This document shows, in pieces, positions 5,927-50,690 of a stretch of DNA of 64,000 nucleotides. A program made the translations under genes and the position numbers. How positions within the stretch are numbered: position 1 is the first letter of the stretch; each line of letters starts with the position of its first letter. The stretch is taken from contig CM097886.1 of NCBI GenBank assembly GCA_044892525.1, positions 82,398,001 through 82,462,000 on the forward strand, in the 5' to 3' direction. Origin of the DNA: Schmidtea polychroa (lineage: Eukaryota). The notes beneath the pieces are model-generated. The model had not been told where the DNA came from and did not search any database. It saw nothing but the letters and a program-made list of their open reading frames with translations.

Positions 5927-5959
<33 letters not shown>

Positions 5960-19358: not shown

Positions 19359-19624
19359 AATTATAAGTAGTCATTATCAAATTGAAAAATATCAATAAAA
19401 AATATAAATCAAAACTCAGTTTGATATAAATTGATTTTGCAAAGGATTTCCCATTGTGCCAATCAATAATAGTCAATGGGGAAATGAGTGTCGTAGATAA
19501 ATTTGTTCAATATTGCACACCAACTTTTCCTAGGAAATTATTTTTCACAAACACATAGAAACAATTCAGAGTGGAAAATTTATTTTACAATAAAACAATT
19601 TCAGTTTAAAATTCGAAATTGCCC

Positions 19625-24670: not shown

Positions 24671-27584
24671 TGTTAGACGCAATTAAATTCAAGTCTTCTT
24701 CAAGCATTTATTTTTATAACAACTTCAAAAATTGAGCCGGTTACTAGAATATTTAAACACCGAGGCGTGATAATTATTAATATTAATGTAATTACTGGTC
24801 ATACATTTAATTGATTTAATTTAATATAATTTAATATAATATGATATAATTTAATATAGAATTTAAATATACAAATTTAACAGAAATAATTATTTCTACT
24901 AACTGATCTCACTTCTACCATTTAACCATATTAATTTTATATAGAGATTTACTAACTCCTTACATCCCCCCTTCTTTAAAATGCTTTAACTTTTCTATAT
25001 TCCTCGTTATTTTTCTCCCGTTTTCGTCTGTTAATAAATAACTTCTTTCATGATTTCGTTTTATTACTGTGTATGGTCCTTCATATCTCTCGTGATCTTT
25101 GTTTCTAATTTCTTGTTTCACCAATACTTTGTCCCCCATTTCTAAGTTCCTAGTTGTGCCAATTTCTTTCGCTTGCTGTCTTTTAGCCTCTAATTTCCGC
25201 ATGATTTCATTTCTATCCACTTCATTATTACTATGCCATTGCGATCTATTAATCTTTCTTCCAAATATAATTTCTGCTGGACTCACTCCAGTAGTTTTTT
25301 GAGCTGTCGCATTTAAAACGTATTCTATATCAGGTATTAATTCTGCCCAGCTTTTTATAACTCCTTCTCTGAGTGACGCGTTAATATAGTCTCTTATAGT
25401 ACGAAATTGTCTTTCAATTACACCATTAGTATTATGATGATACGGACTCGAAAATATCAACTCAATTCCTGCTGCCTTTTCTAGTTCTTTAATGCTATTT
25501 GCTTCGAAATTTTTTCCACAATCAACATGTAGTTCCTTAGGGGCTCCAAATTTCAATATCCAATTATTTAACAAAACTGCCTTTATTGTATTTTCATCTT
25601 GCTTTCTAATAGGAGTTAGAGATATCTATTTACTGTAATGATCGATTATTGCACAAATATATTTTTCTCCTCTGAAGGTTTCTCTTAATGGACCGCAAAT
25701 ATCCATGTATATTTTCTCCATAGGTTCTGAAGCTTGAATTACTTGGGTTTTTTCTTTTGACTTTGTAGTTAAAACTTTGTTTTTCTGGCATGCTTCACAT
25801 ATTGAAATAGTATCTTTTACTTCATTTAGCAAATCTTCCATATCAAAATTGTTCCTAATATATTTCATAACTTTTTCTACTCCTGCGTGGCATAATAATA
25901 AATGTGTTTCCTTAATCATTTCTCGTCTTTTTGTTTCTGGTATCCATATTTTGTTTTGATTGGTATAGATAATATTTCCTTTTAACATATATTTATTATT
26001 TTTCCTTTCATTTATTTGATCTTTTATATCTTGTATTTCTGCATTATCTCTTTGCCATTCATTTCCATTATTTTCGGTCATCAATGTTAACAATCTAGTT
26101 TTTAATCGCCCTGATTTGGGGTTATCATGGTCCATCAAACATTGTACACATTTGTCGCATGTGTTTCTAGACAGCATATCTGCATTCGTATGCGCCGTAC
26201 ATTTTCTGAACTCCATTTTTATGTCTAAACTGCTCAAGTAATTTATCCACGTTTGGAACTGTGCTGTTATCGGCTTCTTTGTCGTTAACATAAAAGTTAT
26301 TGCTTTATGATCAGTGCGCAAAACAAACCGTTTACCGTATAAATAATGGTTGAAATGGCGACAGAAATAATATATAGCCAAAAGCTCTTTTCGTGTTATA
26401 CAATATCCTCTTTCATGGCTACTCATTGAATGGGATCCATATGCAATAACGTGTTCATGCCCCATTTCATCTCTTTGTGATAATAAAGCTCCAATTGTAT
26501 CAAAGCTTGCGTCTGTATCTAATATGAATTCTTTCTCGAAATCTGGAAATACGAGAATTGGCGCTGTAGTCAACGCCATTTTCATTTCTTCGAAAGCTTT
26601 CTCACATTCCTCAGTCCAGATTATTTTTTCACTATTGCTTAGTAGTGTGTATATATACCCAACCAACACAACCCTCCCAACTAAAACATACCTCCATTAT
26701 GCTTAAACCATTAGAAAAACAACATAAAACCTATGCTTTTAGGTTTTATGTTGTTTTTCCAATGGTTTAAGCGTAATGGAGGTATGTTTTTGTTGGGAGG
26801 GCTGTTTTGGTTGGGTATATATACACACTACTTTGCTTCCACATATGCTTTCTAGCGCTCTTGATTTTGTTGCATATTCCTTAATAAATCTCCGATAATA
26901 GTTACATATACCTAAAAAGCTTCTCAAATTCTTTATACACTTAGGCCTCTGAAATGATTTAATAGCCTCAATTTTACTTTGATCTGTCCGAATCCCCTGA
27001 CTGTTAATAATGTGCCCTAAAAACTTTACTTCGCTCTTTAATAACTGACATTTTTCTGGGTTGATTCTCAATTTAGCTTCCCTTATTTTCTCTAGAACTT
27101 TTCCAAACACATTGTAATGTTCTTCAATTGTTCTTGTAAAAATTAAAATATCGTCTAAATACACCATAACTCCTTCTTTCCATAGATCTTTCAATATTTT
27201 TGTCATTAATTCTTGGAATGTACCCGGTGCCGCCGCAATGCCAAAAGGCATTCTATTAAAACAAAATTGCCCTTCTTTAGTAGAAAATGCTGTCTTTTCT
27301 TGCGATTCTATGTCCAATTTCACCTGATAATAAGCGTTCCCAAGGTCTATAGAACTAAAGTACTTAGATCCATGTAATGTATCTAGAATTTCTTCTACAT
27401 TCGGCATAGGAAAAGCTTGTCTTTTAGTAATCTTATTAAGCTGTCTAAAATCTAAACAAAGTCTGATATCTTTTTTGTCTTTTTTCCACACGCATACTAA
27501 CGGCGTATTCCAAGGTGAATTGCATCTTCTTATGATATCATTATTTTCTAAATTTTTTATAGCAGCATTTACTAACTCCTTGCA
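24671..27584 (-). mobile_element. Gypsy/Ty3 LTR retrotransposon with a 5' internal deletion
   Basis: 5-bp TSD AAGAT (24666-24670 and 27585-27589). 3' LTR 24964->24671 (TGTAAG...CTAACA) preceded by the PPT AAAGAAGGGGGGA. RT (YLDDILI), RNase H (DTDAS...KELLAI) and integrase (H-C-CC zinc motif, LHVDCGKNF, NGVIER) follow in order. The 5' end keeps only ~18 nt of LTR (TGCAAGGAGTTAGTAAAT) fused to RT. Confidence 0.92.
26641..26832. mobile_element. 192-bp palindromic mini-element with AGTAGT...ACTACT ends and 6-bp TSD (Polinton-type MITE candidate)
   Basis: 93-bp arms with 5 mismatches and a 6-nt loop. TSD TTGCTT at 26635-26640 and 26833-26838. Removing 198 bp restores the Gypsy pol frame (ICGS-NSEKIIW). 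Confidence 0.85.
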
Positions 27585-28097
27585 AAGATGATAAATCATC
27601 AGAAGTGAATTCATCTCGCAAAACCCTAGCATATTATTTCCAAAGGACTATTGACGACTCACTTTCTGCAGTGGTAAAAAATCGCTTGCCATTCCAAATA
27701 TTTTGCACTTTATTTGATTTAAGAAGACTTCTTAAAGCTAAAAACTATGCGGTGCCGAAATCTGCAAATTCTATAAAAAACTTTGTAATGGAGTATGATG
27801 TTAAAATTAGCATTGAAATTCGTGGAAATATTTCAGACCAGATAAAAATTGGTGCTCCATTTAGTCTTACCTTAGATGAGTGAACTTCCATTAAAAATCG
27901 AAGATATATGAACATTAATGTTCATACAGCCGGAAACAAATTTTGGAATCTAGGTTTCACTCGGGCACATGCAATAACTCCGAATAAAATATTTTCATTA
28001 CTCAATTTAAATATTATTGTTATTCCTCATAATCACATAAGTTACATCCATTTTACCAATAAAAAATGTATACTGTATTTTATAAGGAATTATTAGC

Positions 28098-29465
28098 TAA
28101 AGCTGGATTTTGAACCCAAACCGAACCCGAACCTTGAACCCGCTCCGGTTCAACATTTTTCTTAAATATTGTGGACCCAAACCCAAACCTAAACTCAAAC
28201 AAAAATTTGGTTCAGATTCAATTTTTAATAGCTATTATTATCTATATAGATAATAAATAGAGATTGTGTAAAATTGTTATTCTCATAACTTTATAAAATT
28301 ACAATATAAATAAGACATTCATAACTATTTATGTGAATGGTATTTGCAAAATCTTGTACAAGTTCTTTGTAATAAATAAATTATAAATTATAAATAACAT
28401 AAACTATAAATAATTTATCTATATAGAAATTATAAACTATAGGGATACAGAAATTATAAATTTTTCTAGGGCGTGTGGTAATTAATTGTACCGTTGTGCG
28501 CGATTTATAAAAGAAACATTTATGGTAAGTATATAAATATAGTTTTATCAAAGATCAGTCTACATGTAGCAAGTGCTCTTTTGTTATGAAAGATAAGCAT
28601 GCTGCAAATCTAGGTCGCCATATCAAACGAAGACATCCTGATGAACATCGAACTATTACTGAAAGGATGAATTGTCAACCATCTACATCTGAAACCATTA
28701 AAAAACTTAAAACGGAAGATAAAAACTTAGTTTCCATTGAAAATTATTGTAATTTAATCAAAATTAAAATGCCATCAAAATGTTTCATTGATGCCTGCGT
28801 TAAATTAGTTACAGTTAATGGACGACCGTTTACAATTTTCAATGATTCTGGGAAGCGCGATATTATAGTACGATAATGAAGACACTCAAATTGACTGTAA
28901 ATTCAGAAAACATCATAGATCTAGTAAACAATAAAGCAAATGAAGTAAAAAATATAATTAAAACCTTTGATTGAAAGAAAATTAATATCCATAAAAATCG
29001 ACTCAGCATCCCGGCTTGGTAGAAAAGTAATTGGAATAAATGCACAGCATATTAGCAATGGAAAAATTAATTTGAGAACATTAGCAATGTATGAAGTTAA
29101 TGACCGGCAAATAGAAAATTACATTAAAAATGTAATAGTCGAAGTGATCGAATCTTATGGCATAAAATCAAATCAAATTTACTCAGCTACATCTGATGAT
29201 GGTAGAAATATGATTAAAGCGACAAAACTCTTAAGAAATGAATTTGAAGTTTCTGACCTTTTAAGAAGTGGAAGACAAGGAAGATGAATTGTTATGTGCG
29301 AACGAAGAAAGATTAGAACTCTTTTTTAGTTTATATTCTAATAACATTCACTTTAGGTGCATAGCTCATACTCTCCAATTGGCAGTTTATGACACAACAT
29401 CTGCAGTTTATCATAATATTACTAAATGCAGAGATTTTTCTAAGAAGCTAAGGGCGCCTAATTAA
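28098..29465 (+). pseudogene. Second hAT (Ac/ZBED-like) element: left end and degenerate transposase
   Basis: TAAAGCTG start with AACCCG repeats. BED finger (CSKC...NLGRHIKRRH), then SIKIDSASR, TSDDGRNMIKA and RCIAHTLQLAV, with frameshifts and stops. Confidence 0.75.
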
Positions 29466-30607
29466 TGTAATTTAGAAATAGAAACGCACAAAAAGTGGCT
29501 GCAAAAGGCTTAAATTATCACTAAATTGTTTTAATTATTTAATAATAATATAAATTAACCTAAATTATTTTAAATAAATAGAAGGTCAAATTATTGACCA
29601 GGGCCTAGAAAGTTTGCATTGCGTTTACAGCTTATTTGCGTGACAGAACAGTTTGTAAATTTACGTAGTAGTCAAATCTTGATAATCAAACGTATTGAGC
29701 CACACTGATTTGATGTATTTGTATGAAAGGAACGGATAGATCAACACAAAAATATAATAAGAGTTAAACGGTTAAAGAGTTAAAAGAAACACCAAAAGTC
29801 ACTTAGAATTAAACGAAACAATAAACACAATTTGTTATTCAATTGTTAGTTATCTTGAGAAAAGTTATTTGTGGTAAAATCGTATCCTTCAGTGAGGTAC
29901 AGTATTCGCAGGTATATTGAAACCTCGGAATAAAATTGTATTAAAATTTGAGAAAAATTTGATAGGAGCTAGACGCAGATAATGATCTGAGTACTGTGGT
30001 CGCGTTAAACTTTGGGAAACCCTCGTCTTCTATCTTTCACCTAATTCAGAGCTGAGGTGCCATTTAGACCGAGCTTTTGATAAATTTAATTCTGAGGACG
30101 GTTTGACATTAACGATTATCTTTGAGAATGTCTTTGAGAATAGCTGTCGCGATCCATTTTGGGTTGCTTAAAATCATATTTATATTTAACTATTGGTTTT
30201 GCAAATGTACAGTGTGTTGAATAAATACAATTTTAAAACATATTCTTTATCTACTTTTCAATTCAAATTACCTACACGCCAAAATTGTCAAAAATACCTT
30301 TTGGAGTCAGATATTTCAGTGTTAGGATGTTGATGGCAGACCTGACATAATGATGATAAAGTTTCAAATGGAATTTGAATCTGAAACATTTAATGATAAA
30401 ATCAAAATCAGGGAATTATATTGGATTTGAAAAAAATGAATGAGGGAAAGTAAAAGGTAAGGGAACAGAAAATCGATAACCAATTAGAGATTGGGTTTAG
30501 ATTTTGAAAGAAATTGATCAAGGACAAAATCTTTAATAAGAAGCAATATGAATAAAATAGTTTTGTTACAAAAAGCACGAAAGAGCACGAAAAACCACAA
30601 ATAGTTC

Positions 30608-30964
30608 AAATAGTTCACCTTTCGATTCGGTTCCGCTCTCTGATCCAATCTCTTTTAACACTCCTTGTCTAACTTTTCAGTTTTTCTTATAATCCTTTTC
30701 TTTTAATTTTTTCCTCTAACTCCTACTGTCAGTTTCTTCTTCCCTACCTAAGGCTATCGCCGATTATGTGAATTTTGATTGTCCTTATATACTCCCATAA
30801 TCGGTGTAATTGTCCAATTTTTGACATAATTGGTTTTGACTTCTTTCGTTTTCATTCCCTAATTAGCTATTTCTGTTGACCCTCTTCGTAATTCCCCTTC
30901 TTTTGTTTACCCTTGTTTATTAGGCTCATTGGATTATTGCCCTCTGAATTCCTCGTTTGTTTAC
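30608..30964 (+). mobile_element. 5' part of an LTR-like unit interrupted by the Polinton-like element (continues at 40592-40994)
   Basis: Colinear with the 41-45 kb tandem unit up to ...cctcgtttGTTTAC. The remainder resumes exactly at GTTTACccttcc (40592). Confidence 0.85.
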
Positions 30965-31069
30965 AGTAGGTAGTTAGGAGCCCGCTGGAACAATTACCCC
31001 CCCCCCTGGGGGGGATAAACTGTTCCAACTCACATTTTTTGCTTTCAGGGATTTTTGGTCCAAATTTTT

Positions 31070-31680
31070 TTTTATCAGACTATAGTGAGGTGGGTCTCCT
31101 TGGTCCTGGGATTTTCAATACAAAATTTTTTTTTCAATACAAAAAGGCGGTCTTCAATAAAAAAGCCAGGGATTATTCACACTATAGTGAGGTGGGTCTC
31201 CTTGGTCCTGAGAATTTCAATAGAAAAAGGCGGTCTTCAATAAAAAAGCATGGGATTTTCAGACTATAGTGAGGGGTCTCGATTGATCCTGGGATTTTCA
31301 ATACAAAATTTTTTTTTCAATACAAAAAGGCGGTCTCAATAAAAAAGCATTGTAATTTAAGGTCTCAGGATATTTTCAATACAAAAAGCTGGTCTACACT
31401 AAAAAAGAGTGGTAATTTAAGGTCTCAGGATATTTTCAATACAAAAAGACGGTCTTCAATAAAAAAAGAGTGGTAATTTAAGGTCTCAGGATAGTTTCAA
31501 TACAAAAAGGTGGTCTACACTAAAAAACAGTGGTAATTTAAGGTCTTAGGATATTTTCAATACAAAAATCCGACTATCACTAAAAAAGCATGGAATTTTC
31601 TAGGTCAATTCAGGTGGGTCTTCTTGGTCCTGAGAATTTCAATAGAAAAAGGTGGTCTACACTAAAAAAGCGTGGTAAAT
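31070..31680. repeat. Tandem ~60-61-bp and related longer repeats inside the left TIR (mirrored at ~39860-40460)
   Basis: aatttaaggtctcaggatattttcaatacaaaaag recurs at ~31354, 31414, 31475 and 31536. Related actatagtgaggtgggtctc units lie upstream. Confidence 0.9.
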
Positions 31681-32093
31681 TTTTTAAAATAAAGCAAATT
31701 ATGGGTCTAAAAATTGAATTACAGTAAATTATGGGCTAAGATTTTAAAATTAAAGTAAATTAAGGTTCATATTTTTGAATTAAAGTAATTATAGGCTCAA
31801 ATTTTCGAATTAAAGTTATCAATGGGCTCAAGTAAGTTAATTAAGGTTCAAATTTTTAAATTAAAGTAAATAATGGTTCAAATTTTTAATTAAAGTAAAT
31901 CAAGGTCCAAAATTTTAAATTAAAGCAATGAATGGGCTCAAATAACTAAATTAAGGTTCTAAACAAAGTTAATTAAGGTCTAAATTTTAAAATTAAGTAA
32001 TCAATGGTAAAAAAATTTTAAATTAAAGTAATAATTTTTAAATAAGTAAATTAAAGTAATGTAATAAGTAAATTAAAGTAAGAAAGTAATAAG

Positions 32094-32423
32094 AAATATC
32101 ATAAAAATTTAATTAATGGACAAGAAAAAATTCTAATCATTAATCATCCAGTAAATTTTAAAAAAAATACTGATAATTCAAGTTGAATCAACTAAGATAA
32201 TAAATTAATAAGATAAAATCTAGTAGATAATTGATTTAGATTGAATAAATTAATTTTATTTCAATTAATTTATTCAATCTAAATCAATTATCTACTAGAT
32301 CTTATCTTATTAATTTATTATCTTAGTTGATTCAACTTAAATTATCAGTATTTTTTTTAAATTTACTGGATGATTAATGATTAGAATTTTTTCATGTCCA
32401 TTAATTAAATTTTTATGATATTT
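32094..32423. repeat. ~330-bp near-perfect palindrome just inside the left TIR
   Basis: Arms ~32094-32255 and 32263-32423 are reverse complements with a few mismatches. Loop TTATTTC. Confidence 0.9.
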
Positions 32424-33812
32424 ATTTTGAATAATTTAAATTTTTACAATTATTTAATCAATTTTTACCAAGTTATTGATGCCTTGAATTCAATTAATTT
32501 TTTCATCCAATTTTTCAAGTGAAGAGTATTTACTTTTAAAGATCAATTTGTTAATACAATGTTGTTGGTTGTTAGTAGTTGGTAGTTGATATCTGATTGA
32601 CTTTTTTAGATTTTGATAAGAAGATAGTGTATGCGATGAAGAATGTTTTGTATTTAATTGCTATTATTTTTATGTGTGGTTAGTTGATTGTTGGTACTAA
32701 GTTGTTGGTATCTTGTATCTGGTAGTTGGTACAGTGTTGTTAATTTCTCGATGGGTTTTGATGGTGGTTGTTAGTAACTAGTTGTAGGTATCTGGTTGTA
32801 AGTGTTTAGTATTTAGTTGTTTGAAACCTAGTTGTTAGTACATGGTAACCAGTTAATGGGTAGGTGAAGGGATTGAGAGTTACCAATATTGCAAGTGAAG
32901 AGGATTTTCTTTTAAAGATCTATTTGTTAGTACTTGATTGTTGATTGTTAGTACATGTTCGTAAGTTACTGGTTGATGATACTATGTTGTTGGTATCTTA
33001 TATTTGGTAGTTGGTACAGTGTTGTTTACTGATTGTTGTTATATAGTTGTAGGTTGATAATGCTTAGTACCTGGTTGATGGTGGTTGTTAGTACTTGGTA
33101 GGTTGTAGCTAGTTGTTAGTACTTAGTAGCTAGTTAATGGATTGGTGGGGGTTGAGTGCGACCAATACCCTAACGACTAATACCCTTACGACCAGTACCC
33201 TTAGGGAGTCAAAACATCCTGTCGGATAAACCCAGAGTATATATAATTGTTGCGGGTGGTTACTCGGATGACCCCTTTTAGTGCAGTTTTCAGTCTAGAA
33301 GGATGAATGCCCACATCGATTTCGCTCGTCCTTCGTTTTGTCATCGCCGAGCAGGACCCGCACATAACCTACATTCCAACATAGCACCCGTGAATTGCTT
33401 CACGTTGGAACTGTGCTATGCCGGCGAGACGCCAGTAAGCAGGTGAGCCAGCTCCTTCGGACTACTCCTTACTGAGGCCTCGACTTCCCAACCCTGACTG
33501 CCGATAGAAGGACTTACGTCTAATCATTCCATCGCCCATCGCAAGGTTCCTAGCTGGGGTTGCCAACTGACTAATGCTCCTCATTTTCTACGACTCTCAA
33601 TGTTATTCACCAGTTTTAGATCGACTATTTTAAGATAAACAAAAAAACACATATATAGACGAAAATGGTTTATTGTCAGAATTATTATACAAGTACATCG
33701 AACACATATATATATCAAAATTCCTAAGAATAGGGAAAACACAAGGGTAAGCAATGATGTCAGAAGATGTCCAGGTCTCTCTAGAAGATGAGGCCAGTTT
33801 ACGGAGCAATTC

Positions 33813-34592
33813 TCATTTTTCCCACTCCGAGTCGGCGAGTAACTCGTTTAAATCAAAGAATTCGGCGGCGTTTTCTTCCCATGTTACCCCGGCGGCGGAG
33901 ATGACTCGCCCTGGGATTCCGGTCGTTAGATCGACTACTATTGGATTGCTGTTGCCGTCGACTGGGGTGACGGTTGATGGCAGAATCCGTTTGGTGGAAG
34001 CCCGCTCTCGTTGCTTTCGTTTTCGTTCGGCTCGCGACAGTTGCCGACGTTTAGGTTTTGAAGCTGTTGAGGTTTGCACCATTGAGGACGAAGCGGTGTT
34101 TGGCTGCACTTTATTAGTTCCGGTGAGTACAATGTCTGGACCGCTGGGAGAGAGCTCGGTCTCCACGCACCCATGGCAGGACTTCCCGAGTGGAGATGAA
34201 GGCCCGCCCGAGATCTCGTGGTGCGCTGGAAAAAGATTACTGGCTTCATTAATTGGGATCTTCGCGATTCTCCTAGTGGTTGCTGCTTTGACGTATAACT
34301 TGTGCAGCGCCTCCGACTGCTCCTTTATTAGACTTCTCTGCGCCCGACTTTCGGAAATTAGCGCATCTCGACAGTGCTCGCTGCGGTGCAGCTTCTTCTG
34401 AGCCTCTTTCATCTGGGTAGGACTAAACCATGTCCCCTCTAACTCGTCTATTTTTCTTTTGTACTTTCCGATTTGGGCCTGCAGATCCTTGATGATTGAA
34501 TTCTTGTCGGAACAAGAGAAACAAGGTCTGAGAATGGTCTTGGAATTGGGTAACATTTTGGGTGACTGCAAGAAAAGATGGAAATGAACCAT
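33813..34592 (-). CDS. Orphan protein (CxxC + coiled coil + basic tract + acidic tail), 259-aa ORF, probably the last exon of a spliced gene
   Basis: Only long ORF in the element, and more GC-rich than its surroundings. Diverged homologue at 50335-50690. A pyrimidine tract plus CAG lies just upstream of the conserved region in both copies. Confidence 0.65.
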   Translation of the reverse strand: MVHFHLFLQSPKMLPNSKTILRPCFSCSDKNSIIKDLQAQIGKYKRKIDELEGTWFSPTQMKEAQKKLHRSEHCRDALISESRAQRSLIKEQSEALHKLYVKAATTRRIAKIPINEASNLFPAHHEISGGPSSPLGKSCHGCVETELSPSGPDIVLTGTNKVQPNTASSSMVQTSTASKPKRRQLSRAERKRKQRERASTKRILPSTVTPVDGNSNPIVVDLTTGIPGRVISAAGVTWEENAAEFFDLNELLADSEWEK

Positions 34593-36483
34593 AAATCAAA
34601 TCAATTAGAAGGTCGTCGTCTGGTCACATTTATATTTTACTGATCATAGTTGGTTTCATAGACATGAACGGGTGTATCAGCCAAAGAAATTATACTGCGC
34701 TATGTGTCCTCGTTCCCTTTGGGTCATTAATTGTAAGAAAATAAATCAGTCAAGCGCGATTTTGCACAAGTAAGGAGAGGTATTACTACTGGTGAGAGGA
34801 ATTCTAGGTCGAGGAAACTACGGTTATCTAAATCGCTTGAAGTTAGTAATTAACGTTTGAAGAGAGTTGAATTACATTGCCGACTTTTCCTAACGAATAG
34901 TTTCGATGAATGTATCCTGTACGTAGGTCGATGAATTTTAGATTAATTATTTAGGGTGAATAGAAGTCCATAAATTATTCTTAATTAGTTCATTTATGAT
35001 GTACGGGAAGACATTATAAAAACAATTTTTAATTATTTATTTATGATAGGCGACAAATTATTCAACATGAGATAATAACTAAATTAATCCTACTAAGTAG
35101 ACAAAATCAGTCTGACAGTTGGCTATTAGTTCCGACCAGTGGGAATCTAATGACTGCGAGTGAATTCATTTGATAACCCGAAAATTCCAACTGACACGTC
35201 CGGTCGGGTTTGTCATGAGTACATGTCGGCGTGAATCTACACACCGTGATTAGCTACTGTAGTGTGTCTGAAAACGGGTGACGCATGCAAGTTTTTATTT
35301 CTCATACTTAATCCCACTCCTAATCACTAACTGGTGCCCTCAACTGTTTACCTACTGGCATGTTCTCTGGCTACTATCTCGATCAACTCACTGCACAGAT
35401 GCTCCGATTTCCCTACTCATGATGATGTCATACTAATTCTCACGGAAATGCTGGAAAAATTATGATTCTCGGTATTGCAAGAGTTGGGTATAATTTGCCC
35501 CCCAGGGGGGAACTGCCTAACTCCTCAATTGCGGTGTATTGATCCGTTCCGGATATTTTGGAGGTTTCCTACCTATCCTCGCTGGATTTTCAACTCCATG
35601 AAACACGGTAATTTATGTTTACTAGGTAAGGATTATCATGTTAGAGTGGTTTGTAGAAAAGAAAAATATATTTTTTGACTCGATTTGATTGCGTTTTACT
35701 CTTGAGATTATTTGGCACTAAACAGTTTATGTAATTAGAAAAATTTGTGGAAGTTAATCCCTTTATATAATTCTAAAAGCAATTGAAGCAAATCATTTTT
35801 TGCAATTCAAAAATAGTTGAAGTAACCCGTTTTACGTAATTCGAAATTTTATGCGAGACAACTTGTTCATGGAATTCTAACGCTCATCCGAGACTACTTA
35901 TTTTCTGTAATCCCCTGCAACTACATCTTTGAGAGAACACGTAGACGAGGAAACAATAGCACGGAAGGCCATAAAACACAGCAGGTATAAATTTCGAGTG
36001 AAACGTACGAATATCGAAGATATGTCACCTATAGCATTTGAACGACTCTCGATGAGCAACCTGCATAGAGCTTTAGAACGATAGAGGAAATTAGAACTTA
36101 GTAGAAACGATAATCTTGAGACGATAGTGTGACTCCCTCAATCACTGCGCGAATACATAAAAACTCTCTGATCGTTTCTTCCTACATCTGTTTTCCATTG
36201 CTATACGACTTTCAATTTTCTGGCAACATTTTCCTATGGAATTTAGTCGCACCTTCAGCGACGGACCCGTGAGGAAGCCCCCACATTACGGCCCGAATCA
36301 GCTGCGTGATTGAAATACTCTAGGCCCACCGGTGGAGCTCCCGAGGGCACCTCACACCATGACACTAGAGTATCCAACGCCACGTTTCTCGAAAATTTGA
36401 ATGGCATTAAATAATAACTCATTAAAACAGTTCATAAAAGTCAATAATTCCTAGAAATCAATCATGCATAGCAAATCATTTAT

Positions 36484-37254
36484 TGTTAAATACTAAATCG
36501 TTAAATTACACCAAGTATTCGGAATCAAACGAAAAGAAAACAAGTTCTTTAAATTAAAATTATAATTAAATCATACGCATAACTATTACTTTAAAATTCA
36601 AATTATGAAATCAAAAGATCCTTACCGAGTGTTTAATAGAGGTATAGGCTGAGTCGAAAAGGGGTACTGTGTCGAAGTAATAAATGTTCGAAATTATCTA
36701 GATTCGGCTGAAATTTCTTGGATTTCCGGAATAGTCCTCGTGAGTTGCTGTGGATTGATTGTTTAATTGCGGTTTCGTCGTAGAATGGATCTATTGAGGT
36801 GGTTAGATTAACTGTCGATTATTTTAAACTTTACTTACCTATTGAGGTGGTTAGATTAACTGTAATTATTATGATTTTAATACCTGCTTATATATTAATT
36901 TTTTGTTTGCGCGGACCAATCAGAATTGAGTACCGCTTAATTTTATTAATTTAATTTATTTTCCTTGTTTTAGAGTTATTTCTTCTTATTTTCTTTATTA
37001 AAATTATGTTTTTTATTTATTTTCCTTAATTTTCCTTATTATTTATTATATTTTGCGTTATTTTCTGTCATTCTAATGTCCTATTTCAATTTTTCTTATT
37101 TTTATATTTTTTTCTTGTTTTAATTCTTATTTCTAATTATTGTTTTTCTTATGTTCTATTCTATTTTATTCGTCAATCTATTTATTTTATTTCTTATTTT
37201 TACTTTAGTTAAATTCGACCTAATTTCCCAGCTACCCTTCGATTCAGCCCAACA
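36484..37254 (-). mobile_element. Possible solo LTR inside the Polinton-like element
   Basis: Bounded by TGTT...CCCAACA (the reverse complement of the TGTTGGG LTR start seen elsewhere). Flanks TTAT/TAAT are not a perfect TSD. Confidence 0.3.
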
Positions 37255-37559
37255 TAATAAAACTGATCAACAATAAGTATTTATTGAATACGATTTTTAC
37301 ATTGCAATAATAAGTCAGTAGTAATCAATTAAAAGAAGAATGTTTTGTAAATTAGAATTCATTAGTCTTTCATTGTAATTTAAATTATCCTGAATTCCAC
37401 GTGTTGTTTTAAAGTGGTTGAGTTGTGTTTTTTTGATGAAAATCAACATTTTTGTTAAATTTAGACATTTTGAAAAGGTTTTTCTACTGATTTTAATTAA
37501 ACATATTTTTGAAGACAGATAAAAAATTAATTTAAAAAACATTTTATAAAATACAATGA

Positions 37560-39100
37560 AGAATATTTAGTAGGTTTTTGTAGGTATCTAGTTGTTTGAG
37601 AGTTAGTTAGTACGTGGTATCATGTTGAAAGTATTTGGTACTTATTTGTTAGCACCTAGTTAAAAATATTTAGTAACCGATTGTTGGTAACTGTTGAATT
37701 ATTATTATTATTATTATTATTCCATTAAAATTTTCATAAATATTTTTCATTAAAAATTAACTTAAAAAATTTTACATTTAAAATTAACCTAAAAAAACTT
37801 CCATTTAAATTTTCATTAAAAATTACATTTCTCAAAAAAGTTGGTGGTTATTCAATCTTTTGATAATAAATTTAAAAATCTTACTTTAATTTACTTATTT
37901 AGCTTTAATTTAAAATTTGAACCATTGGTTAATTAATTTTAAATTTTGAACCTTAATTTTCCTTAATTTATCCTTAATTTACCTAATTATTCTTTATTTC
38001 TTAATTTTACACCATAATTTACTTAAGAACTAAATGTAATCCTTATTTTCATATTTAACCAATAATTTCATGTGGTCATTGATTAATTGACGAAGATTTG
38101 CATCTAAAATTAACATTGAAAATCCCAGAAAAACTTTCATCTTAAATTGACTTTAATATTTTAGATCATTGATTAGTTAATTTAAAAATTAAACATTAAT
38201 TTACCTATTTAACAAATAATTTCATGTGGTCACCTGGTTGTAAGTGTTTGGTATCTAGTTGACAGTGCTTAGTACTTGGTATCTAGTTGTTAGTACTTGG
38301 TTGATAATGCTTAGTTGCTGGTTGTTGTCGGTTGTGAGTAGTTGGTATCTGGTAGTTAGTTGTTAGCTGGTTGTAACTAGTTAATGGGTAGGTGGTTGTA
38401 GGTACTTGGTAGCAGGTAACTGATTGTTAGTATCTAGTTGTAGGTATCTGGTTGATGTTGGTTGTATTTACTTGGTATCTGGTACCTAGTTGGTTGGTTG
38501 TTTTTGGTTGTTAGTATCTAGTTGCAGGTACTTGGTAGTTGGTTAATAATGCTTAGTACTTGGTTGTTGTTGGTTGTATGTACTTGGTAGGTAGTTGTAG
38601 GTACTTGGTAATTAATGCTTAGTACCTGGTTGTTGTTGGTTGTTAGTACTTGGTAGGTGGTTGCTAGTTGTTAGCTGGTTGTAGCTAGTTAATGGGTAGG
38701 TGGTTGTAGGTACTTGGTATCTAGTTGTTAGTATCTAGTTGTGGGTATCTGGTTGATGTTGGTTGTAAGTAGTTGGTAGGTGGTTGTCGGTACTTAGTAG
38801 TTGGTAATTAATGCTTAGTACCTGGTTGATGTTGGTTGTAGGTACTTGGTAGTTGGTTGTTGTGGGTTGTAAGTAGTTGGTAGGTTGTAGCTAGTTGTTA
38901 GTTGGTTTTTTTTAGTTGTTAGTACTTGGTAGGTGGTTGTAGGTACTTGGTTGATAATGCTTAGTAGCTGGTTGTTGTCGGTTGTGAGTAGTTGGTATCA
39001 GGTTGTTAGTAACTAGTTGTAGGTATCTGGATGTAAATACATGTTCGTAAGTTACTGGTTGTTGGTACTAAGTTGTTGGTTTGTTGTTGAATTATTATTA
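37560..39100. repeat. GT-rich degenerate short-period repeats (gttgttagtacttggta-like); also at 32530-33160
   Basis: Strongly C-poor on the plus strand. Duplicated together with the following AT-rich block (37690-38000 vs 39085-39500). Confidence 0.85.
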
Positions 39101-41224
39101 AAATTTGTCTTTGAAAAATATTTCATAAAAATTTTCATTAAAAATTATCTTAAAAATTATTCCATAAAAATTTCTATTAAAAATTAACTTAAAAAATTAT
39201 TCTATAAAAATTTCCATTAAAAATTACCATTGAAAAATATTTCATTAAAATTTCTATTAAAAATTACTTAAAAAATTATTTGATAAAAATTTTCTTTAAA
39301 AAGTTTCAATTCTCAAACACCTTCTATTATTTCAACTTTTTGTTAATAAATTTAAAAATCTTACTTTAATTTACTTATTACATTACATTAATTTACTTAT
39401 TTAAAAATTATTACTTTAATTTAAAATTTTTTTACCATTGATTACTTAATTTTAAAATTTAGACCTTAATTAACTTTAATTTAATTTTTTAGAACCTTAA
39501 TTTAGTTATTTGAGCCCATTCATTACTTTAATTTAAAATTTTGGACCTTGATTTATTTTAATTAAAAATTTGAACCATTATTTACTTTAATTTAAAAATT
39601 TGAACCTTAATTTACTTAGTTGAGCCCTTAATTAACTTTAATCTTAAATTTTGAACCATTATTTACTTTAATTTAAAAATTTGAACCTTAATTAACTTAC
39701 TTGAGCCCATTGATAACTTTAATTCGAAAATTTGAGCCTATAATAACTTTAATTCAAAAATATGAACCTTAATTTACTTTAATTTTAAAATCTTAGCCCA
39801 TAATTTACTATAATTCAATTTTTAGACCCATAATTTGCTTTATTTTAAAAAATTTACCACGCTTTTTTAGTGTAGACCACCTTTTTCTATTGAAATTCTC
39901 AGGACCAAGAAGACCCACCTGAATTGACCTAGAAAATTCCATGCTTTTTTAGTGATAGTCGGATTTTTGTATTGAAAATATCCTAAGACCTTAAATTACC
40001 ACTGTTTTTTAGTGTAGACCACCTTTTTGTATTGAAACTATCCTGAGACCTTAAATTACCACTCTTTTTTTATTGAAGACCGTCTTTTTGTATTGAAAAT
40101 ATCCTGAGACCTTAAATTACCACTCTTTTTTAGTGTAGACCAGCTTTTTGTATTGAAAATATCCTGAGACCTTAAATTACAATGCTTTTTTATTGAGACC
40201 GCCTTTTTGTATTGAAAAAAAAATTTTGTATTGAAAATCCCAGGATCAATCGAGACCCCTCACTATAGTCTGAAAATCCCATGCTTTTTTATTGAAGACC
40301 GCCTTTTTCTATTGAAATTCTCAGGACCAAGGAGACCCACCTCACTATAGTGTGAATAATCCTTGGCTTTTTTATTGAGACCACCTTTTTGTATTGAAAA
40401 AAAAAATTTTGTATTGAAAATCCCAGGACCAAGGAGACCCACCTCACTATAGTCTGATAAAAAAAAATTTGGACCAAAAATCCCTGAAAGCAAAAAATGT
40501 GAGTTGGAACAATTGCATAATAAAAAGTTGGAACAATTTACCCCCCCCCCCCTGGGGGGTAATTGTTCCAGCGGGCTCCTTACTACCTACTGTTTACCCT
40601 TCCAAATTGTCGTGCTCAGGTTTTCTTCATTGCTCGGGTTCTCCATTAGCTCGAACTTCCCATTAGCTCGGGTTTCCCATTAGCCAATTAATTAATTAAT
40701 TATTCGTTTTTTCATATTTGTCTGTTTTACGACCCTTTCTAAATATTTTCTAACAATTTCTTGCTTACTGTCTTCTTCACCATCCCTTAATCTACCCCTC
40801 TTCCGTTTTCCAGCTTCAATTTCGATAACTTTTCACTTTATTCCACTTCCTCAGGTTTGCGCATTTTTTCCATTTCATGTCTGATTGTACCCTTTTATAG
40901 TTCTTTTTTATCATATCTTTCTTTGCCATTGCTTCTCTGCTTGACCGCCATTCAATTTCGGTTTTCCTTTTAATCAGAACTATATAATTTAATANNNNNN
41001 NNNNNNNNNNNNNNNNNNNNNNNNNNNNNNNNNNNNNNNNNNNNNNNNNNNNNNNNNNNNNNNNNNNNNNNNNNNNNNNNNNNNNNNNNNNNNNNNNNNN
41101 NNNNNNNNNNNNNNNNNNNNNNNNNNNNNNNNNNNNNNNNNNNNNNNNNNNNNNNNNNNNNNNNNNNNNNNNNNNNNNNNNNNNNNNNNNNNNNNNNNNN
41201 NNNNNNNNNNNNNNNNNNNNNNNN

Positions 41225-42193
41225 TAAAATCAACCGTTGGTTACTCTGACTCCACGTGTTCCAAAATCAATAAACACAAACTCCCAACCTATATTTGTTT
41301 TATAACAATTCACAACTCAACAATTAATCACACTGTTGGTTAATCACAATTCTTACACAATTTCAGATCGAACTCCCTCTGGAAGGTCTCGGCCTTGTAC
41401 GATTTAAAAAATAGGTTTCACCTTTTGTTTGATTCCGCTCTCTGATCCGAACTCTTTTAATATTCCTTTCTGACTCCTAAATTCCTCTTATAATTCCTTT
41501 TTCCTTTTTATTTTTATTCCTCGAACTCCTATCGTCTGTTTCTTCGTATCCCTACCTAAGGCTATCGCCGATTATGTGAATTTTGAGTTTCCTTATATAC
41601 TCCCATAATCGTTGTAATTGCCCCATTTTTGACCTAATTGGTTTTGACTTCTTCAGCTATCATTCCCTAATTGACTATTTTTGTTGACCCTCTTCGTAAT
41701 TCCCCGTCTTTTGTTTACCCTCGTTTATCCGGTTGTTTGGATAATTGCCCTCTGAATTCCTCGTTTGTTTACTCTTCCAAATTGCCGTGCTCGGGTTTTC
41801 TTCATCGCTCGGGTTCTCCATTGGCTCGGGCTTCCCATTAGCTCGGGTTTCCCATTAGCCAATTAATTAATTAATTAATATTTTACGTTTTTCCACATTT
41901 GTCTGTTTTACGACCCTTTCTACACATTTTCTAACAATTTCTTGCTCACTGTCTTCTTCACCATCCCTTAATCTATCCCTCTCCCGTTTTCCAGCTTCAA
42001 TTTCGATAACTTTTCACTTTATTCCACTTCCTCAGGTTTGCGCATTTTTTCCATTTCATGTCTGATTGTACCCTTTTATAGTTCTTTTTTATCATATCTT
42101 TCTTTGCCATTGCTTCTCTGCTTGACCGCCATTCAATTTCGGTTTTCCTTTTAATCAGAACTATATAATTTAATAATTTACTTTTAAAACATC

Positions 42194-42278
<85 letters not shown>

Positions 42279-44373
42279 GTGTTGGGTTTTATGATATTAA
42301 AATCAACCGTTGGTTACTCTGACTCCACGTGTTCCAAAATCAATAAACACAAACTCCCAACCTATATTTGTTTTATAACAATTCACAACTCAACAATTAA
42401 TCACACTGTTGGTTAATCACAATTCTTACACAATTTCAGATCGAACTCCGCTCTGGAAGGTCTCGGCCTTGTACGATTTAAAAAATAGGTTTCACCTTTT
42501 GTTTGATTCCGCTCTCTGATCCGAACTCTTTTAATATTCCTTTCTGACTCCTAAATTCCTCTTATAATTCCTTTTTCCTTTTTATTTTTATTCCTCGAAC
42601 TCCTATCGTCTGTTTCTTCGTATCCCTACCTAAGGCTATCGCCGATTATGTGAATTTTGAGTTTCCTTATATACTCCCATAATCGTTGTAATTGCCCCAT
42701 TTTTGACCTAATTGGTTTTGACTTCTTCAGCTATCATTCCCTAATTGACTATTTTTGTTGACCCTCTTCGTAATTCCCCGTCTTTTGTTTACCCTCGTTT
42801 ATCCGGTTGTTTGGATAATTGCCCACTGAATTCCTCGTTTGTTTACCCTTCCAAATTGCCGTGCTCGGGTTTTCTTCATCGCTCGGGTTCTCCATTGGCT
42901 CGGGCTTCCCATTAGCTCGGGTTTCCCATTAGCCAATTAATTAATTAATTAATATTTTACGTTTTTCCACATTTGTCTGTTTAACGACCCTTTCTACACA
43001 TTTTCTAACAATTTCTTGCTCACTGTCTTCTTCACCATCCCTTAATCTACCCCTCTCCCGTTTTCCAGCTTCAATTTCGATAACTTTTCACTTTATTCCA
43101 CTTCCTCAGGTTTGCGCATTTTTTCCATTTCATGTCTGATTGTACCCTTTTATAGTTCTATTTTATCATATCTTTCTTTGCCATTGCTTCTCTGCTTGAC
43201 CGCCATTCAATTTCGGTTTTCCTTTTAATCAGAACTATATAATTTAATANNNNNNNNNNNNNNNNNNNNNNNNNNNNNNNNNNNNNNNNNNNNNNNNNNN
43301 NNNNNNNNNNNNNNNNNNNNNNNNNNNNNNNNNNNNNNNNNNNNNNNNNNNNNNNNNNNNNNNNNNNNNNNNNNNNNNNNNNNNNNNNNNNNNNNNNNNN
43401 NNNNTAAAATCAACCGTTGGTTACTCTGACTCCACGTGTTCCAAAATCAATAAACACAAACTCCCAACCTATATTTGTTTTATAACAATTCACAACTCAA
43501 CAATTAATCACACTGTTGGTTAATCACAATTCTTACACAATTTCAGATCGAACTCCCTCTGGAAGGTCTCGGCCTTGTACGATTTAAAAAATAGGTTTCA
43601 CCTTTTGTTTGATTCCGCTCTCTGATCCGAACTCTTTTAATATTCCTTTCTGACTCCTAAATTCCTCTTATAATTCCTTTTTCCTTTTTATTTTTATTCC
43701 TCGAACTCCTATCGTCTGTTTCTTCGTATCCCTACCTAAGGCTATCGCCGATTATGTGAATTTTGAGTTTCCTTATATACTCCCATAATCGTTGTAATTG
43801 CCCCATTTTTGACCTAATTGGTTTTGACTTCTTCAGCTATCATTCCCTAATTGACTATTTTTGTTGACCCTCTTCGTAATTCCCCGTCTTTTGTTTACCC
43901 TCGTTTATCCGGTTGTTTGGATAATTGCCCTCTGAATTCCTCGTTTGTTTACTCTTCCAAATTGCCGTGCTCGGGTTTTCTTCATCGCTCGGGTTCTCCA
44001 TTGGCTCGGGCTTCCCATTAGCTCGGGTTTCCCATTAGCCAATTAATTAATTAATTAATATTTTACGTTTTTCCACATTTGTCTGTTTTACGACCCTTTC
44101 TACACATTTTCTAACAATTTCTTGCTCACTGTCTTCTTCACCATCCCTTAATCTACCCCTCTCCCGTTTTCCAGCTTCAATTTCGATAACTTTTCACTTT
44201 ATTCCACTTCCTCAGGTTTGCGCATTTTTTCCATTTCATGTCTGATTGTACCCTTTTATAGTTCTTTTTTATCATATCTTTCTTTGCCATTGCTTCTCTG
44301 CTTGACCGCCATTCAATTTCGGTTTTCCTTTTAATCAGAACTATATAATTTAATAATTTACTTTTAAAACATC

Positions 44374-44413
<40 letters not shown>

Positions 44414-45409
44414 GTGTTGGGTTTTATGATATTAAAATCAACCGTTGGTTACTCTGACTCCACGTGTTCCAAAATCAATAAACACAAACTCCCAACCTAT
44501 ATTTGTTTTATAACAATTCACAACTCAACAATTAATCACACTGTTGGTTAATCACAATTCTTACACAATTTCAGATCGAACTCCCTCTGGAAGGTCTCGG
44601 CCTTGTACGATTTAAAAAATAGGTTTCACCTTTTGTTTGATTCCGCTCTCTGATCCGAACTCTTTTAATATTCCTTTCTGACTCCTAAATTCCTCTTATA
44701 ATTCCTTTTTCCTTTTTATTTTTATTCCTCGAACTCCTATCGTCTGTTTCTTCGTATCCCTACCTAAGGCTATCGCCGATTATGTGAATTTTGAGTTTCC
44801 TTATATACTCCCATAATCGTTGTAATTGCCCCATTTTTGACCTAATTGGTTTTGACTTCTTCAGCTATCGTTCCCTAATTGACTATTTTTGTTGACCCTC
44901 TTCGTAATTCCCCGTCTTTTGTTTACCCTCGTTTATCCGGTTGTTTGGATAATTGCCCTCTGAATTCCTCGTTTGTTTACCCTTCCAAATTGCCGTGCTC
45001 GGGTTTTCTTCATCGCTCGGGTTCTCCATTGGCTCGGGCTTCCCATTAGCTCGGGTTTCCCATTAGCCAATTAATTAATTAATTAATATTTTACGTTTTT
45101 CCACATTTGTCTGTTTTACGACCCTTTCTACACATTTTCTAACAATTTCTTGCTCACTGTCTTCTTCACCATCCCTTAATCTACCCCTCTCCCGTTTTCC
45201 AGCTTCAATTTCGATAACTTTTCACTTTATTCCACTTCCTCCGGTTTGCGCATTTTCCCATTTCATGTCTGATTGTACCCTTTTATAGTTCTGTTTTTAT
45301 CATATCTTTCTTTGCCATTGCTTCTCTGCTTGACCGCCATTCAATTTCGGCTTTCCTTTTAATATGAACTATATAATTTAATAATTTACTTTCAAACCCT
45401 CAACAATAG
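41225..45409 (+). mobile_element. Tandem array of four ~1-kb solo-LTR-like units separated by (AAT)n
   Basis: Equivalent positions at 41225, 42298, 43405 and 44433, with near-identical units. The last unit, 44415-45405, is TGTTG...CAACA flanked by the 4-bp TSD ATAG. Confidence 0.8.
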
Positions 45410-45751
45410 TAATAATAATAATAATACCCTTATGAGATGTTGAGTGTAACCAGTACTCTTGTGAGCAATACTCATAAGGGGACAAAAATATCTTGTCGGA
45501 TAAACTCAGATTATACCTTTTGTTTGATATACATAATATAAGGTTTTGAAAAAATTCAAAGGTTTTTAACCCTTTGAAGGTTATTGAACCTCCATAGACC
45601 TTCGATGGTCTCAAATACTCACCATTCAAATACCTTTCGAATGAGCTATTAAATAATAAAACCCATTGGCGGGAATTTAAATGTTAAAAATTTAGCATGA
45701 CTCTTTGCATAACTCACCGCGTGACTCATACGACCTTGAGAATGACCTTGA

Positions 45752-49100: not shown

Positions 49101-50334
49101 ATATATAATTCAATGAATGTCATATAAAATTAAATATGAGGCCCTTCACAACATGATCCTTGATTACCATACGTATTACTAAATCAACTAAATTAATCTA
49201 AATGTAAAAATAAAAACAAAGAACAAATTTCGAATAAATCCTATCAATATACAATTATTGTTACAAGGCTTAAGTCATGAACTGTTCATTGTGATAGTTC
49301 TACCAAAGATAACTGGTAGTTGGGAGAACTATGTGAATTGACCTCTGCGTTGGACAGGAGTTCATTCAAGTTGAACAGGACGTCATCTTCCATGTCCACA
49401 ACGAAGGAGAGATCGGTCAGATCGGATTGGGTTCTGTTATTGGTTCGGTCACTCAAAATTAGCCTGAGACTGCCGCTTAATGTGTTGTTTCTCATTTCGC
49501 AACGCGCCATGCAGATGTTTACATTTTGATTTTTGAGCCTAGATCGATCCAGGAGTGGCCACTGTAATGTAATGTTAATTGTTTATGTACCATTTTTTAA
49601 ATGTAATTACAAATTACATTACTTAACTTAATTCGAGTCACGGCCCCCACAACCCAACGAAATGATCTATATAGTAATTCTCTATAGTAATAATTTACTT
49701 TAGAGAATTGAAAAATATAAAAATCAAACAAAAATCGAAAATTTGATAATAAAATTAGAAGACTTATAAATTAAGAAACCCATCAAAAGCTCCATAATAT
49801 AAAAACGACTGAATCGAAATTATCCTTTATTTGAGAAAATCCATCAAGAGTTTCGAAATTTAAAATGAACAGATCTGAAGTCCTTATTTTTCGAGAAAAT
49901 CCATTGGTAGTTTCAAGGCATAGAATAACAAATTAGAAGTTTCAAAGCATAAAATAGTAAAATTGAAGTTTTATTTATTTAGTAAGATCTGTCGAAATTT
50001 AGGAACATAGAAGTGATAGAATTCGAATTATCAATCCTACCCCAAATTTCAAGGTTCATACTTTTTTTATAAATAAAAGTTGTAAATTTATTTAATTGTT
50101 ATTGTTATTTATTTAATTGTCGCTATTTTATACAACATACATGCAAGCACTCCAGCTGTCCCGAGACAGTACTTTTAAAGGAGACTTGGCTGGGTACTAC
50201 AAGATTTCTTCAACAAGTCAATTATTTAGGTATAAACTATCACATATAGAAATTAAGATATGTAACTATAATAGCCACCATACTAAGATCTATCAATGGT
50301 GGTGGACCTTCGGCTGATTCAGTTCCGTCACGGA

Positions 50335-50690
50335 AAGGTGATGACCAATGATCACATTTGCCACTTTTGCCAATGGAAAATTTTGGATCCTTGATTATAA
50401 TTCAGCCTTAGTATAGACCTGATTTAGAGCGTGGGCCTTTTCCTGTATGAAGCTTCTCTGAACCCGACTTTCATCTATGACCCCATCTCTACAATTCTCC
50501 AGGTATCGAATCTTTAGTTGAGCCTCTTTCATCTGTGCGGGCTTAAACCAAGTGCTCTCGAGGCGGTTGATTTTGGCATCAAGGAACACGATCTTTGTGT
50601 CTCGTAAACAGGTCGTTTCATTCTTATCTGCGCAGGGGAAGCAAGGTTTGATAGATGAATTAGTTGATATAATATGTTGTACTGAAACAT
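50335..50690 (-). pseudogene. Diverged copy of the orphan CxxC/coiled-coil gene
   Basis: KPCFPCADKN...KINRLESTWFKPAQMKEAQLKIRYLENCRDGVIDESRVQRSFIQEKAHALNQVYTKAEL*SRIQNFPLAKVANVIIGHH aligns without gaps to RPCFSCSDKN...KIDELEGTWFSPTQMKEAQKKLHRSEHCRDALISESRAQRSLIKEQSEALHKLYVKAATTRRIAKIPINEASNLFPAHH. One in-frame stop. Confidence 0.8.

Follow-up and report, generated by a model that had tools for sequence, protein, structure and literature searches.

A candidate accessory protein gene in a non-autonomous Maverick/Polinton-type element of Schmidtea polychroa

Described systems and the element that carries the gene

Mavericks are defined by long terminal inverted repeats (TIRs) and duplications of the target site (TSDs) that are perfect and 6 bp long, and the vertebrate elements end in 5′-(AG)3 or (AGT)2, according to the available part of PMC8097293. 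Cargo-carrying Polintons are noted in the accessible text of 10.1101/2025.02.07.637071. In the portion of PMC8502044 at hand, adintovirus Oncoids are defined by LxCxE/CR1 motifs, and pX-like basic domains are part of virion accessory proteins that Polintons encode.

The window analysed here is a stretch of 64,000 nucleotides (contig CM097886.1 of assembly GCA_044892525.1, positions 82,398,001 to 82,462,000). The host DNA has an AT-rich, animal-like character. The window holds two diverged copies of one gene, called copy 1 and copy 2. Copy 1 lies in an element with the following parts:

30965–40591, unstranded: non-autonomous Maverick/Polinton-type element of 9,627 bp with the ends AGTAGGTAGT / ACTACCTACT (TIRs, TSD, no core ORF found inside)
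30959–30964, unstranded: left 6-bp TSD, GTTTAC
40592–40597, unstranded: right 6-bp TSD, GTTTAC
30965–32083, plus strand: left TIR; over a core of 869 nt it complements the right arm at 98%
39359–40591, minus strand: right TIR

The element resembles the Mavericks described in the available part of PMC8097293 in its long TIRs (approximately 1.1–1.2 kb) and its perfect 6-bp TSD. Its ends are of the form AG..CT. Where the vertebrate elements have (AG)3 or (AGT)2 ends in that text, this element has AGTAGGTAG..CTACCTACT, which starts with AGT and is not an exact (AGT)2. GTTTAC stands singly at 42841 and at 44975, where the host repeat that the element interrupted recurs in the adjoining tandem array; these are clean empty sites.

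No pPolB match was found within 30965–40591 by tblastn with a pPolB relic from elsewhere in the window (relic 1, below), and no long ORF was present there besides copy 1 and its antisense shadow, so that neither an integrase nor a capsid ORF was found and no ORF was of sufficient length for capsid, ATPase or protease genes. The element was therefore classed as non-autonomous and not as an autonomous member. The simplest inference is that it is a Polinton derivative by internal deletion. It shares long TIRs, AG..CT ends, a 6-bp TSD and the lack of its own enzymes with non-autonomous Mavericks and cargo-carrying Polintons, and it differs from non-autonomous Mavericks in that a single accessory gene, which fits no known family, has stayed intact.

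We judge the insertion to be young because the TIR arms are 98% alike. By our estimate, approximately 8 substitutions are expected in the copy 1 ORF given TIR arms 2% apart, and most such sets leave the frame open. The intactness of copy 1 needs no selection, because the element is so young. The first-pass annotation had described the gene as retained even by the non-autonomous element; as a sign of selection, this falls with the young age of the insertion.

An AT-rich palindrome of approximately 410 bp lies at 32053–32464, just inside the left TIR (102-nt arms, 97% complementary). GT-rich strand-biased repeats at 32545–33150 and 38230–39090 flank the element core in direct, not inverted, orientation. 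The tandem array (40591–45426 and 30608–30964) is built of units of approximately 1.03–1.18 kb, one of which is interrupted by the element; several units adjoin assembly gaps.

The gene, its second copy and the surrounding modules

The two gene copies, the pPolB relics and the high-copy non-coding sequences of the window are as follows:

33813–34592, minus strand: copy 1 ORF, 259 aa when read from the first ATG, with Met13 at 34556 as the likely true start (247 aa) (ORF listing, contigs, Met positions of homologues)
34566–34585, minus strand: acceptor-like site made up of a pyrimidine tract and CAG, 9 nt ahead of the Met13 codon (sequence; AG at the equivalent place in a diverged X5 contig)
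50338–50652, minus strand: helical core of copy 2, which an in-frame stop at 50395–50397 interrupts (tblastn)
49343–49538, minus strand: 3′ pieces of copy 2, a basic-tract-like piece (49538–49485) and a tail (49378–49343) in different frames, approximately 0.8 kb from the core (shuffles)
45752–48150, plus strand: pPolB relic 1, in pieces, convergent with copy 2 (Pfam DNA_pol_B_2, E 1.2e-17, on 46577–47599)
53409–55143, plus strand: pPolB relic 2, in pieces, 42–52% identical to relic 1
33176–33241, plus strand: very high-copy non-coding motif (contig depth; window self-comparison)
45449–45515, plus strand: the same motif once more, lying upstream of pPolB relic 1 (E 1.9e-6, 75% over 67 nt)
33250–33640, unstranded: high-copy non-coding module, joined to the ORF 3′ end in several families (contigs)

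None of 1000 shuffles of 33150–36800 gave a stop-free frame as long as the copy 1 ORF (median 101, maximum 226), and we regard this ORF as real and protein-coding. An antisense ORF of 216 aa (33751–34398, plus strand) had no Pfam match and was taken as a shadow of copy 1.

Copy 2 aligned with copy 1 by tblastn at E 1e-26 over 105 codons with 0 gaps and 47 identical codons (45%), and the three motifs that the first-pass annotation had quoted for this gap-free pair were all present. The recurrence of the tail motif, also claimed there, held locally: the match LFNLNELLSNAE at 49378–49343, within 1.1 kb 3′ of copy 2, was equalled in 0 of 500 local shuffles with one query length and in 1 of 500 with another, but its E value against the whole window was 3.1. 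The basic-tract-like piece at 49538–49485 was borderline, being reached by 27 of 500 shuffles. Because a tail and a basic-tract-like piece were found 3′ of the core, copy 2 is most likely the whole gene in pieces. It sits between pPolB relics 1 and 2, both decayed. No recognisable termini were found around it in this decayed region, and its link to pPolB is therefore by proximity.

Over 104 codons compared between the copies, identity at the three codon positions was 58, 74 and 41. The pS was 0.77 (saturated) and the pN 0.36, and the resulting pN/pS of 0.46 (bootstrap 0.35–0.61) is an upper bound on omega, with synonymous sites saturated. Over a 58-codon core, pN/pS was 0.35. It had been proposed that the amino-acid conservation over nucleotide divergence reflects past selection, with a dN/dS near 1 as the opposite sign; the values agree with the proposal and strongly support past purifying selection on the family of copy 1. 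Among contig pieces 80–90% alike, gaps occurred in 0 of 10 on the ORF vs 7 of 14 off the ORF (Fisher p 0.0099), a test on 31 pieces listed of 5,024 that left out seven X7 pieces no longer than 38 nt and gives p 0.044 by hand if they are kept. Of the 15 variants listed within the ORF, with 318 further rows beyond the listing, 6 were synonymous vs 23% expected (p 0.12, not significant), and none created a stop codon.

The gene is present in many copies. The summed X3 contig depth was 24,600–84,700 over the ORF vs 2,200–12,300 over 34614–36077, and it reached 1.29 million at 33150–33640 and 306,000 at 36200–36440 (non-coding modules), summed depths not being copy numbers. Some derivatives of the element appear to be without part or all of the ORF, as in contig joints at 33520–34157, 33521–34365 and 33519–36264, seen in one contig each with only 20–26 letters on the short side.

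Both loci have the same layout, in which the high-copy motif is followed by pPolB (copy 2) or nothing (copy 1) and then by the gene in the opposite direction. The association with Polintons suggested earlier was thereby upheld in this window, on the TIR/TSD element, the pPolB relics and the motif common to both loci. The motif at 33159–33247 is possibly a pPolB promoter or a cis element common to many families. It consists of 14–15-nt tandem units with a TATA-like end and lies at the highest contig depth (the summed 1.29 million); many loose contig ends fall at both of its borders, and it recurs in part at 32828–32888. The modules at 33250–33640 and 36200–36440 are GC-richer, very high-copy and non-coding, and several contigs fuse the former directly to the ORF stop region. 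The high-copy modules gave no Rfam match at the gathering score, no tRNA and no folding signal (structured-RNA z 0.50 and −1.20), and readings of them as ribozyme, tRNA or structured RNA had no support from those searches.

Translation of copy 1 probably starts at Met13, giving a product of 247 aa. Met13 is a likelier start than Met1 because of the points where contigs cease to fit and the Met spacing of the homologues described below. The fit to the copy 1 5′ end is lost at 34556 in an X6 contig and at 34560 in an X5 contig, and in 11 of 16 homologues a Met precedes the GTW anchor by 39–48 residues, the distance being 40 for Met13 of copy 1 and 52 for Met1. The first ATG is altered in the sole X3 contig spanning 34590. 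The X5 contig at the copy 1 start retains a pyrimidine tract of its own that differs from that of the window, with an AG positioned as the window's CAG; such contigs may be DNA or unspliced repeats. IFDN directly precedes the Met in three homologues, each fused to a different host gene, which therefore points to an acceptor approximately 12 nt upstream there too. The acceptor lying directly 5′ of the start seems to be conserved, and this favours a non-coding leader over an upstream coding exon. The leader could be derived from a cis intron or, from flatworm biology, be a spliced leader.

The spliced gene of the first-pass annotation is thus retained for its acceptor, but not for a coding exon upstream. 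In 34600–36400, where the exon had been placed, no ORF matched the pPolB region or the copy 1 family at E < 0.1, and most element families do not share the region. The CAG had been reported at the same position in both copies; it lies 39 nt (copy 1) and 35 nt (copy 2) before the Pro codon of PCF, 4 nt off and in a different phase. No GT..AG joint was present among 15 joints listed of 25 in contigs of runs X5, X6 and X7, which are possibly DNA or unspliced repeats. The X6 contigs (possibly DNA) cover the copy 1 ORF and both high-copy modules, with no cover over 34858–36077; X5 contigs cover the two ends of the ORF and X7 contigs none of it (possibly DNA or unspliced repeats). There was no TATAAAC late-type box upstream of the ORF. 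TATAAAT occurs at 34628–34634 (minus strand), one letter from TATAAAC and 72–78 nt ahead of Met13, and a branch-like word, CTAAT, falls between this box and the CAG.

The protein family and its predicted structure

A phmmer search with the copy 1 protein over 1.84 billion representatives gave 12 matches, of which 11 were real and one, the repetitive P0007 (4029 aa), was a false match missing from the profile search. Profile searches added 5 homologues, for a total of 16. No vertebrate-looking family emerged from the phmmer search. In gene models, 14 of the 16 homologues are fused to host domains, 14 different ones in all: subtilase, SNF transporter, actin, glycine cleavage P, CRAL-TRIO, tyrosine phosphatase, L21, ABC and DAD, and five known by accession that we take to be MCM, peptidase M1, ankyrin, sedlin and LSM14. 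None of the 16 is fused to a polymerase, integrase, RT or any Polinton gene. All homologues with a stated source (11 of 16) are MetaClust singletons. Fusion to unrelated domains is what gene predictors make of a dispersed mobile-element ORF, and no fewer than 14 models of unrelated host genes in a public protein set are contaminated in this way. The tree placed the two window copies together (99/98) beside at least three further groups, and the family has at least four clades at approximately 40–60% identity.

The orphan status claimed by the first-pass annotation was supported; by sequence and structure comparison, the family fits no known Pfam, PHROGs, PDB, BFVD or Atlas family. Pfam gave the copy 1 protein sub-threshold matches only (best Rootletin, E 0.012). 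PHROGs gave it no match, with three single-member matches at E 0.02–0.04 among 13 rows. There were 0 PDB matches by profile at E ≤ 1 and 0 Foldseek matches against BFVD and PDB at E ≤ 0.001. The best ESM Atlas value by features was 0.83 for the copy 1 protein, and P0006 had no usable feature match and a TM of ≤ 0.42 by query. A word-indexed search with the copy 1 protein yielded 0 of 438 candidates, and family loci sought by pattern were found in 0 of 22 matches in viral contigs and 0 of 181 in metagenome contigs. Both window copies are linked to pPolB or Maverick TIRs, and 0 of the 16 homologues was placed beside either. The protein is not described by title or abstract in the literature surveyed; Repbase, subscription papers and supplements (that of PMC8502044 lists Adintoc proteins) may annotate it. 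It probably represents an accessory protein family, apparently undescribed so far, of a known kind of element.

The following features were assigned to the copy 1 protein:

34512–34523, minus strand: C24-x-x-C27, confined to the window copies, at the predicted dimer interface's N-terminal end
34260–34505, minus strand: two long helices (aa 30–53 and 58–111) with a W55-x-x-P58 kink and invariant E81, R83, Q85 and R86; predicted parallel homodimer (alignment, AlphaFold2)
33984–34058, minus strand: basic tract, aa 179–203, 13 K/R, helical at 187–200
33924–33941, minus strand: SIM-like IVVDLT, aa 218–223 (SIM definition from the available part of PMC12751080)
33825–33860, minus strand: acidic amphipathic tail FFDLNELLADSE with LxxLL, helix 248–253

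AlphaFold2 with 13 sequences gave helices 30–53 and 58–111 with a pLDDT of approximately 90 and further helices at 187–200 and 248–253; the rest was disordered and the pTM was 0.39. Two copies of aa 20–128 formed a parallel in-register dimer with a score of 0.50 in three runs, vs 0.02 for the best of 3 controls, with a contact agreement of at least 85% and a pLDDT of 79. Of solved microbial structures, 21 of 30 pairs and 0 of 23 single chains came up to the score mark; of eukaryotic ones, 17 of 29 pairs did and 0 of 30 single chains. The pass may owe something to likeness to solved coiled coils, coiled-coil dimers being common there. Two chains are thus predicted to pair over aa 24–103, in parallel and in register, as a coiled-coil homodimer kinked at W-x-x-P, and the dimerising coiled coil proposed earlier has gained the support of prediction.

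In a 13-row alignment, W55, P58, E81, R83, Q85 and R86 are invariant. The CxxC, previously listed as a family trait, occurs in 0 of 16 homologues and is confined to the window copies; a second CxxC at aa 139–142, which the first-pass annotation had overlooked, makes two, 115 residues apart, in the copy 1 protein only. C24 and C27 of both chains lie in the predicted interface. By analogy, this CxxC of one chain could meet that of the other at one dimer end and share a zinc ion with it, as a subfamily add-on. The CtIP N-terminal domain is a parallel coiled-coil dimer in which the CxxC of both chains share one zinc, according to the available part of PMC8205527. The likeness in a predicted parallel coiled-coil dimer with a CxxC from each chain is an architectural analogy only; no sequence similarity to CtIP was found, and in the copy 1 protein the CxxC lies at the coil end, not in the middle, and is not conserved in the family.

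The basic tract noted in copy 1 by the first-pass annotation is present, with 13 K/R in aa 179–203. At least 7 K/R in 12 residues occur in 10 of 16 homologues (one such stretch lies further out, in a protein where the family tract is present as well). Most members of sufficient length show an Arg-rich tract after the helices, and homologues carry N-R-R-R-R-E-R-R-R. A bZIP was rejected: the tract lies C-terminal of helices 30–111, approximately 70 residues after the coil, and there was no bZIP Pfam match. A SIM-like motif stands at anchor +162 to +165 in the copy 1 protein and 5 of 16 homologues (P0004, P0005, P0006, P0014 and P0015), P0016 has a further one, and the remaining 10 of 16, many of them truncated, have none; the pattern was fitted after the sequences had been seen, and SIMs are loose motifs in the available text of PMC12751080. 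The LxxLL tail is found in copy 1, copy 2 and P0016 (1 of 16 homologues).

Compared with the Adintoc unknowns and Oncoids in the available part of PMC8502044, the family is alike in being a small non-core ORF near pPolB with short linear motifs, and copy 1 has two CxxC. It differs in that the CxxC is present in 0 of 16 homologues and an 80-residue coiled coil is the main feature, and copy 2 is 3′ of, and convergent with, pPolB relic 1. LxCxE and CR1, (DEN)(LIMV)xx(LM)(FY), were each found in 0 of 17 family members, and DLNELL of the copy 1 tail fails CR1 at the last position. An Oncoid, as defined in that part of the source, was ruled out by these counts.

Possible roles of the product

The copy 1 ORF is, in our assessment, very probably a real Maverick-borne protein gene. 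We propose that it would be an accessory gene of the Maverick/Polinton-type elements of this animal lineage, common to many element families, and that copy 1 would have been left in a young deletion derivative that lost pPolB and other core genes. A short non-coding leader would be spliced on before translation from Met13. Through the Arg/Lys tract the dimer would reach the nucleus, bind nucleic acid, or both. Docking of host chromatin or transcription proteins would fall to the invariant E-x-R-x-Q-R surface and to the disordered tail with its SIM-like motif and acidic LxxLL helix, and the protein would act as a bivalent adaptor favouring element expression. For the further step, that the product works as a dimeric nuclear adaptor or regulator, we put the chances a little below even. 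HSV ICP0, KSHV K-bZIP, HIV Rev and adenovirus E1A are small viral regulators with an oligomer domain, a basic tract and a SIM or acidic tail. The copy 1 protein is like them in motif grammar and differs in having no homology to them and no RING.

In the available part of PMC8532177, nuclear PIWI represses Polintons at the chromatin level in a planarian and has the elements as direct targets in stem cells, which would give a nuclear adaptor a plausible motive. The accessible text of 10.64898/2025.12.11.693146 reports that Mavericks are strongly expanded in some planarian genomes (Dugesia). The non-core genes of Mavericks are largely unexplained, and the copy 1 family is a concrete candidate for dealing with host silencing. 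A more specific form of this is a long shot: flatworm-type Mavericks would encode a dimeric nuclear counter-silencing adaptor whose SIM and acidic LxxLL helix intercept SUMO-dependent PIWI/chromatin repression, and derivatives would supply it in trans. If true, it would be the first dedicated counter-silencing factor for this element class in animals within the literature surveyed. VANC of the Arabidopsis VANDAL elements are transposon anti-silencing proteins in the part of the source available. The likeness lies in a hypothetical role, that of a non-catalytic factor which an element encodes against silencing by its host; the two differ in element class, kingdom and fold.

A long helix with an Arg-rich tract would also suit a Maverick structural protein, that is, a basic genome-binding core or cement protein in particles with the coiled coil as a spacer, and the pX-like basic domains of Polinton virion accessory proteins in the available part of PMC8502044 fit with this. 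We hold it to be unlikely, since in the sole locus with context the gene adjoins pPolB and not a capsid module, the acidic tail carries short docking-like motifs, the structure searches of BFVD and PDB were empty at E ≤ 0.001, and no match lies beyond one narrow gene-model set. The homologues' N-R-R-R-R-E-R-R-R and the Leu-rich tail recall Rev, with the Arg-rich helix binding element RNA and the tail serving as an export or processing signal for intron-containing Polinton transcripts. P0002 even matches Pfam REV at aa 140–171 (E 0.0013, 19.1 bits), but this match is below the curated cut-off (22 bits), occurs in 1 of 11 proteins and is compositional; the copy 1 protein has no REV match, and the flanking high-copy modules have neither a structured-RNA signal (z values above) nor an Rfam family. 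An RNA adaptor of this kind seems quite unlikely.

The contig depth invites another explanation, a separate mobile unit (approximately 33159–36440) nested in the Maverick shell, such as a retroelement coiled-coil ORF1/gag or Helitron cargo, with ends of 1.29 million and 306,000 summed depth vs a middle of 2,200–12,300. Homologues scattered beside unrelated host genes would fit it, as would the coiled-coil ORFs of Terminon retroelements in the available part of PMC6431247. It is nevertheless improbable: neither a direct nor an inverted repeat was found between the ends of the stretch, both copies and their immediate surroundings gave no match to a zinc knuckle, RRM, RT or integrase, and the left high-copy motif recurs upstream of pPolB. 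Pfam, the ORF listing and the repeat search gave none of the retroelement gag/ORF1 features (CCHC knuckle, RRM, adjacent RT, LTR, poly(A)). A fragment captured from a host gene, or an ORF arisen by chance, without a role in the element's life could account for the broken copy 2 and for derivatives that appear to be without part or all of the ORF. The selection signal, the frame conservation and the at least four clades at approximately 40–60% identity make it very improbable, as does the finding of no conserved cellular homologue among 1.84 billion representatives, in Pfam or in PDB. The accessory gene of Maverick/Polinton-type elements remains our preferred reading.

The window contains other genes and repeats. 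Three nearly intronless paralogues (15575–17245 and 19610–21151, plus strand; 59642–61210, minus strand) resemble what we take to be cationic amino-acid transporters, and a multi-exon gene at 6410–9119 (minus strand) is presumably related to topoisomerase III alpha. Two presumed hAT-like and one Tc1/IS630-like transposase relics lie at 3133–4739 (plus strand), 28529–29287 (plus strand) and 58323–59075 (minus strand). A decayed Gypsy-like pol with a Pfam integrase match is located at 24960–27647 (minus strand), and a small palindromic MITE-like family is present at 52569–52704, 5633–5803, approximately 29494–29572 and 62608–62680.
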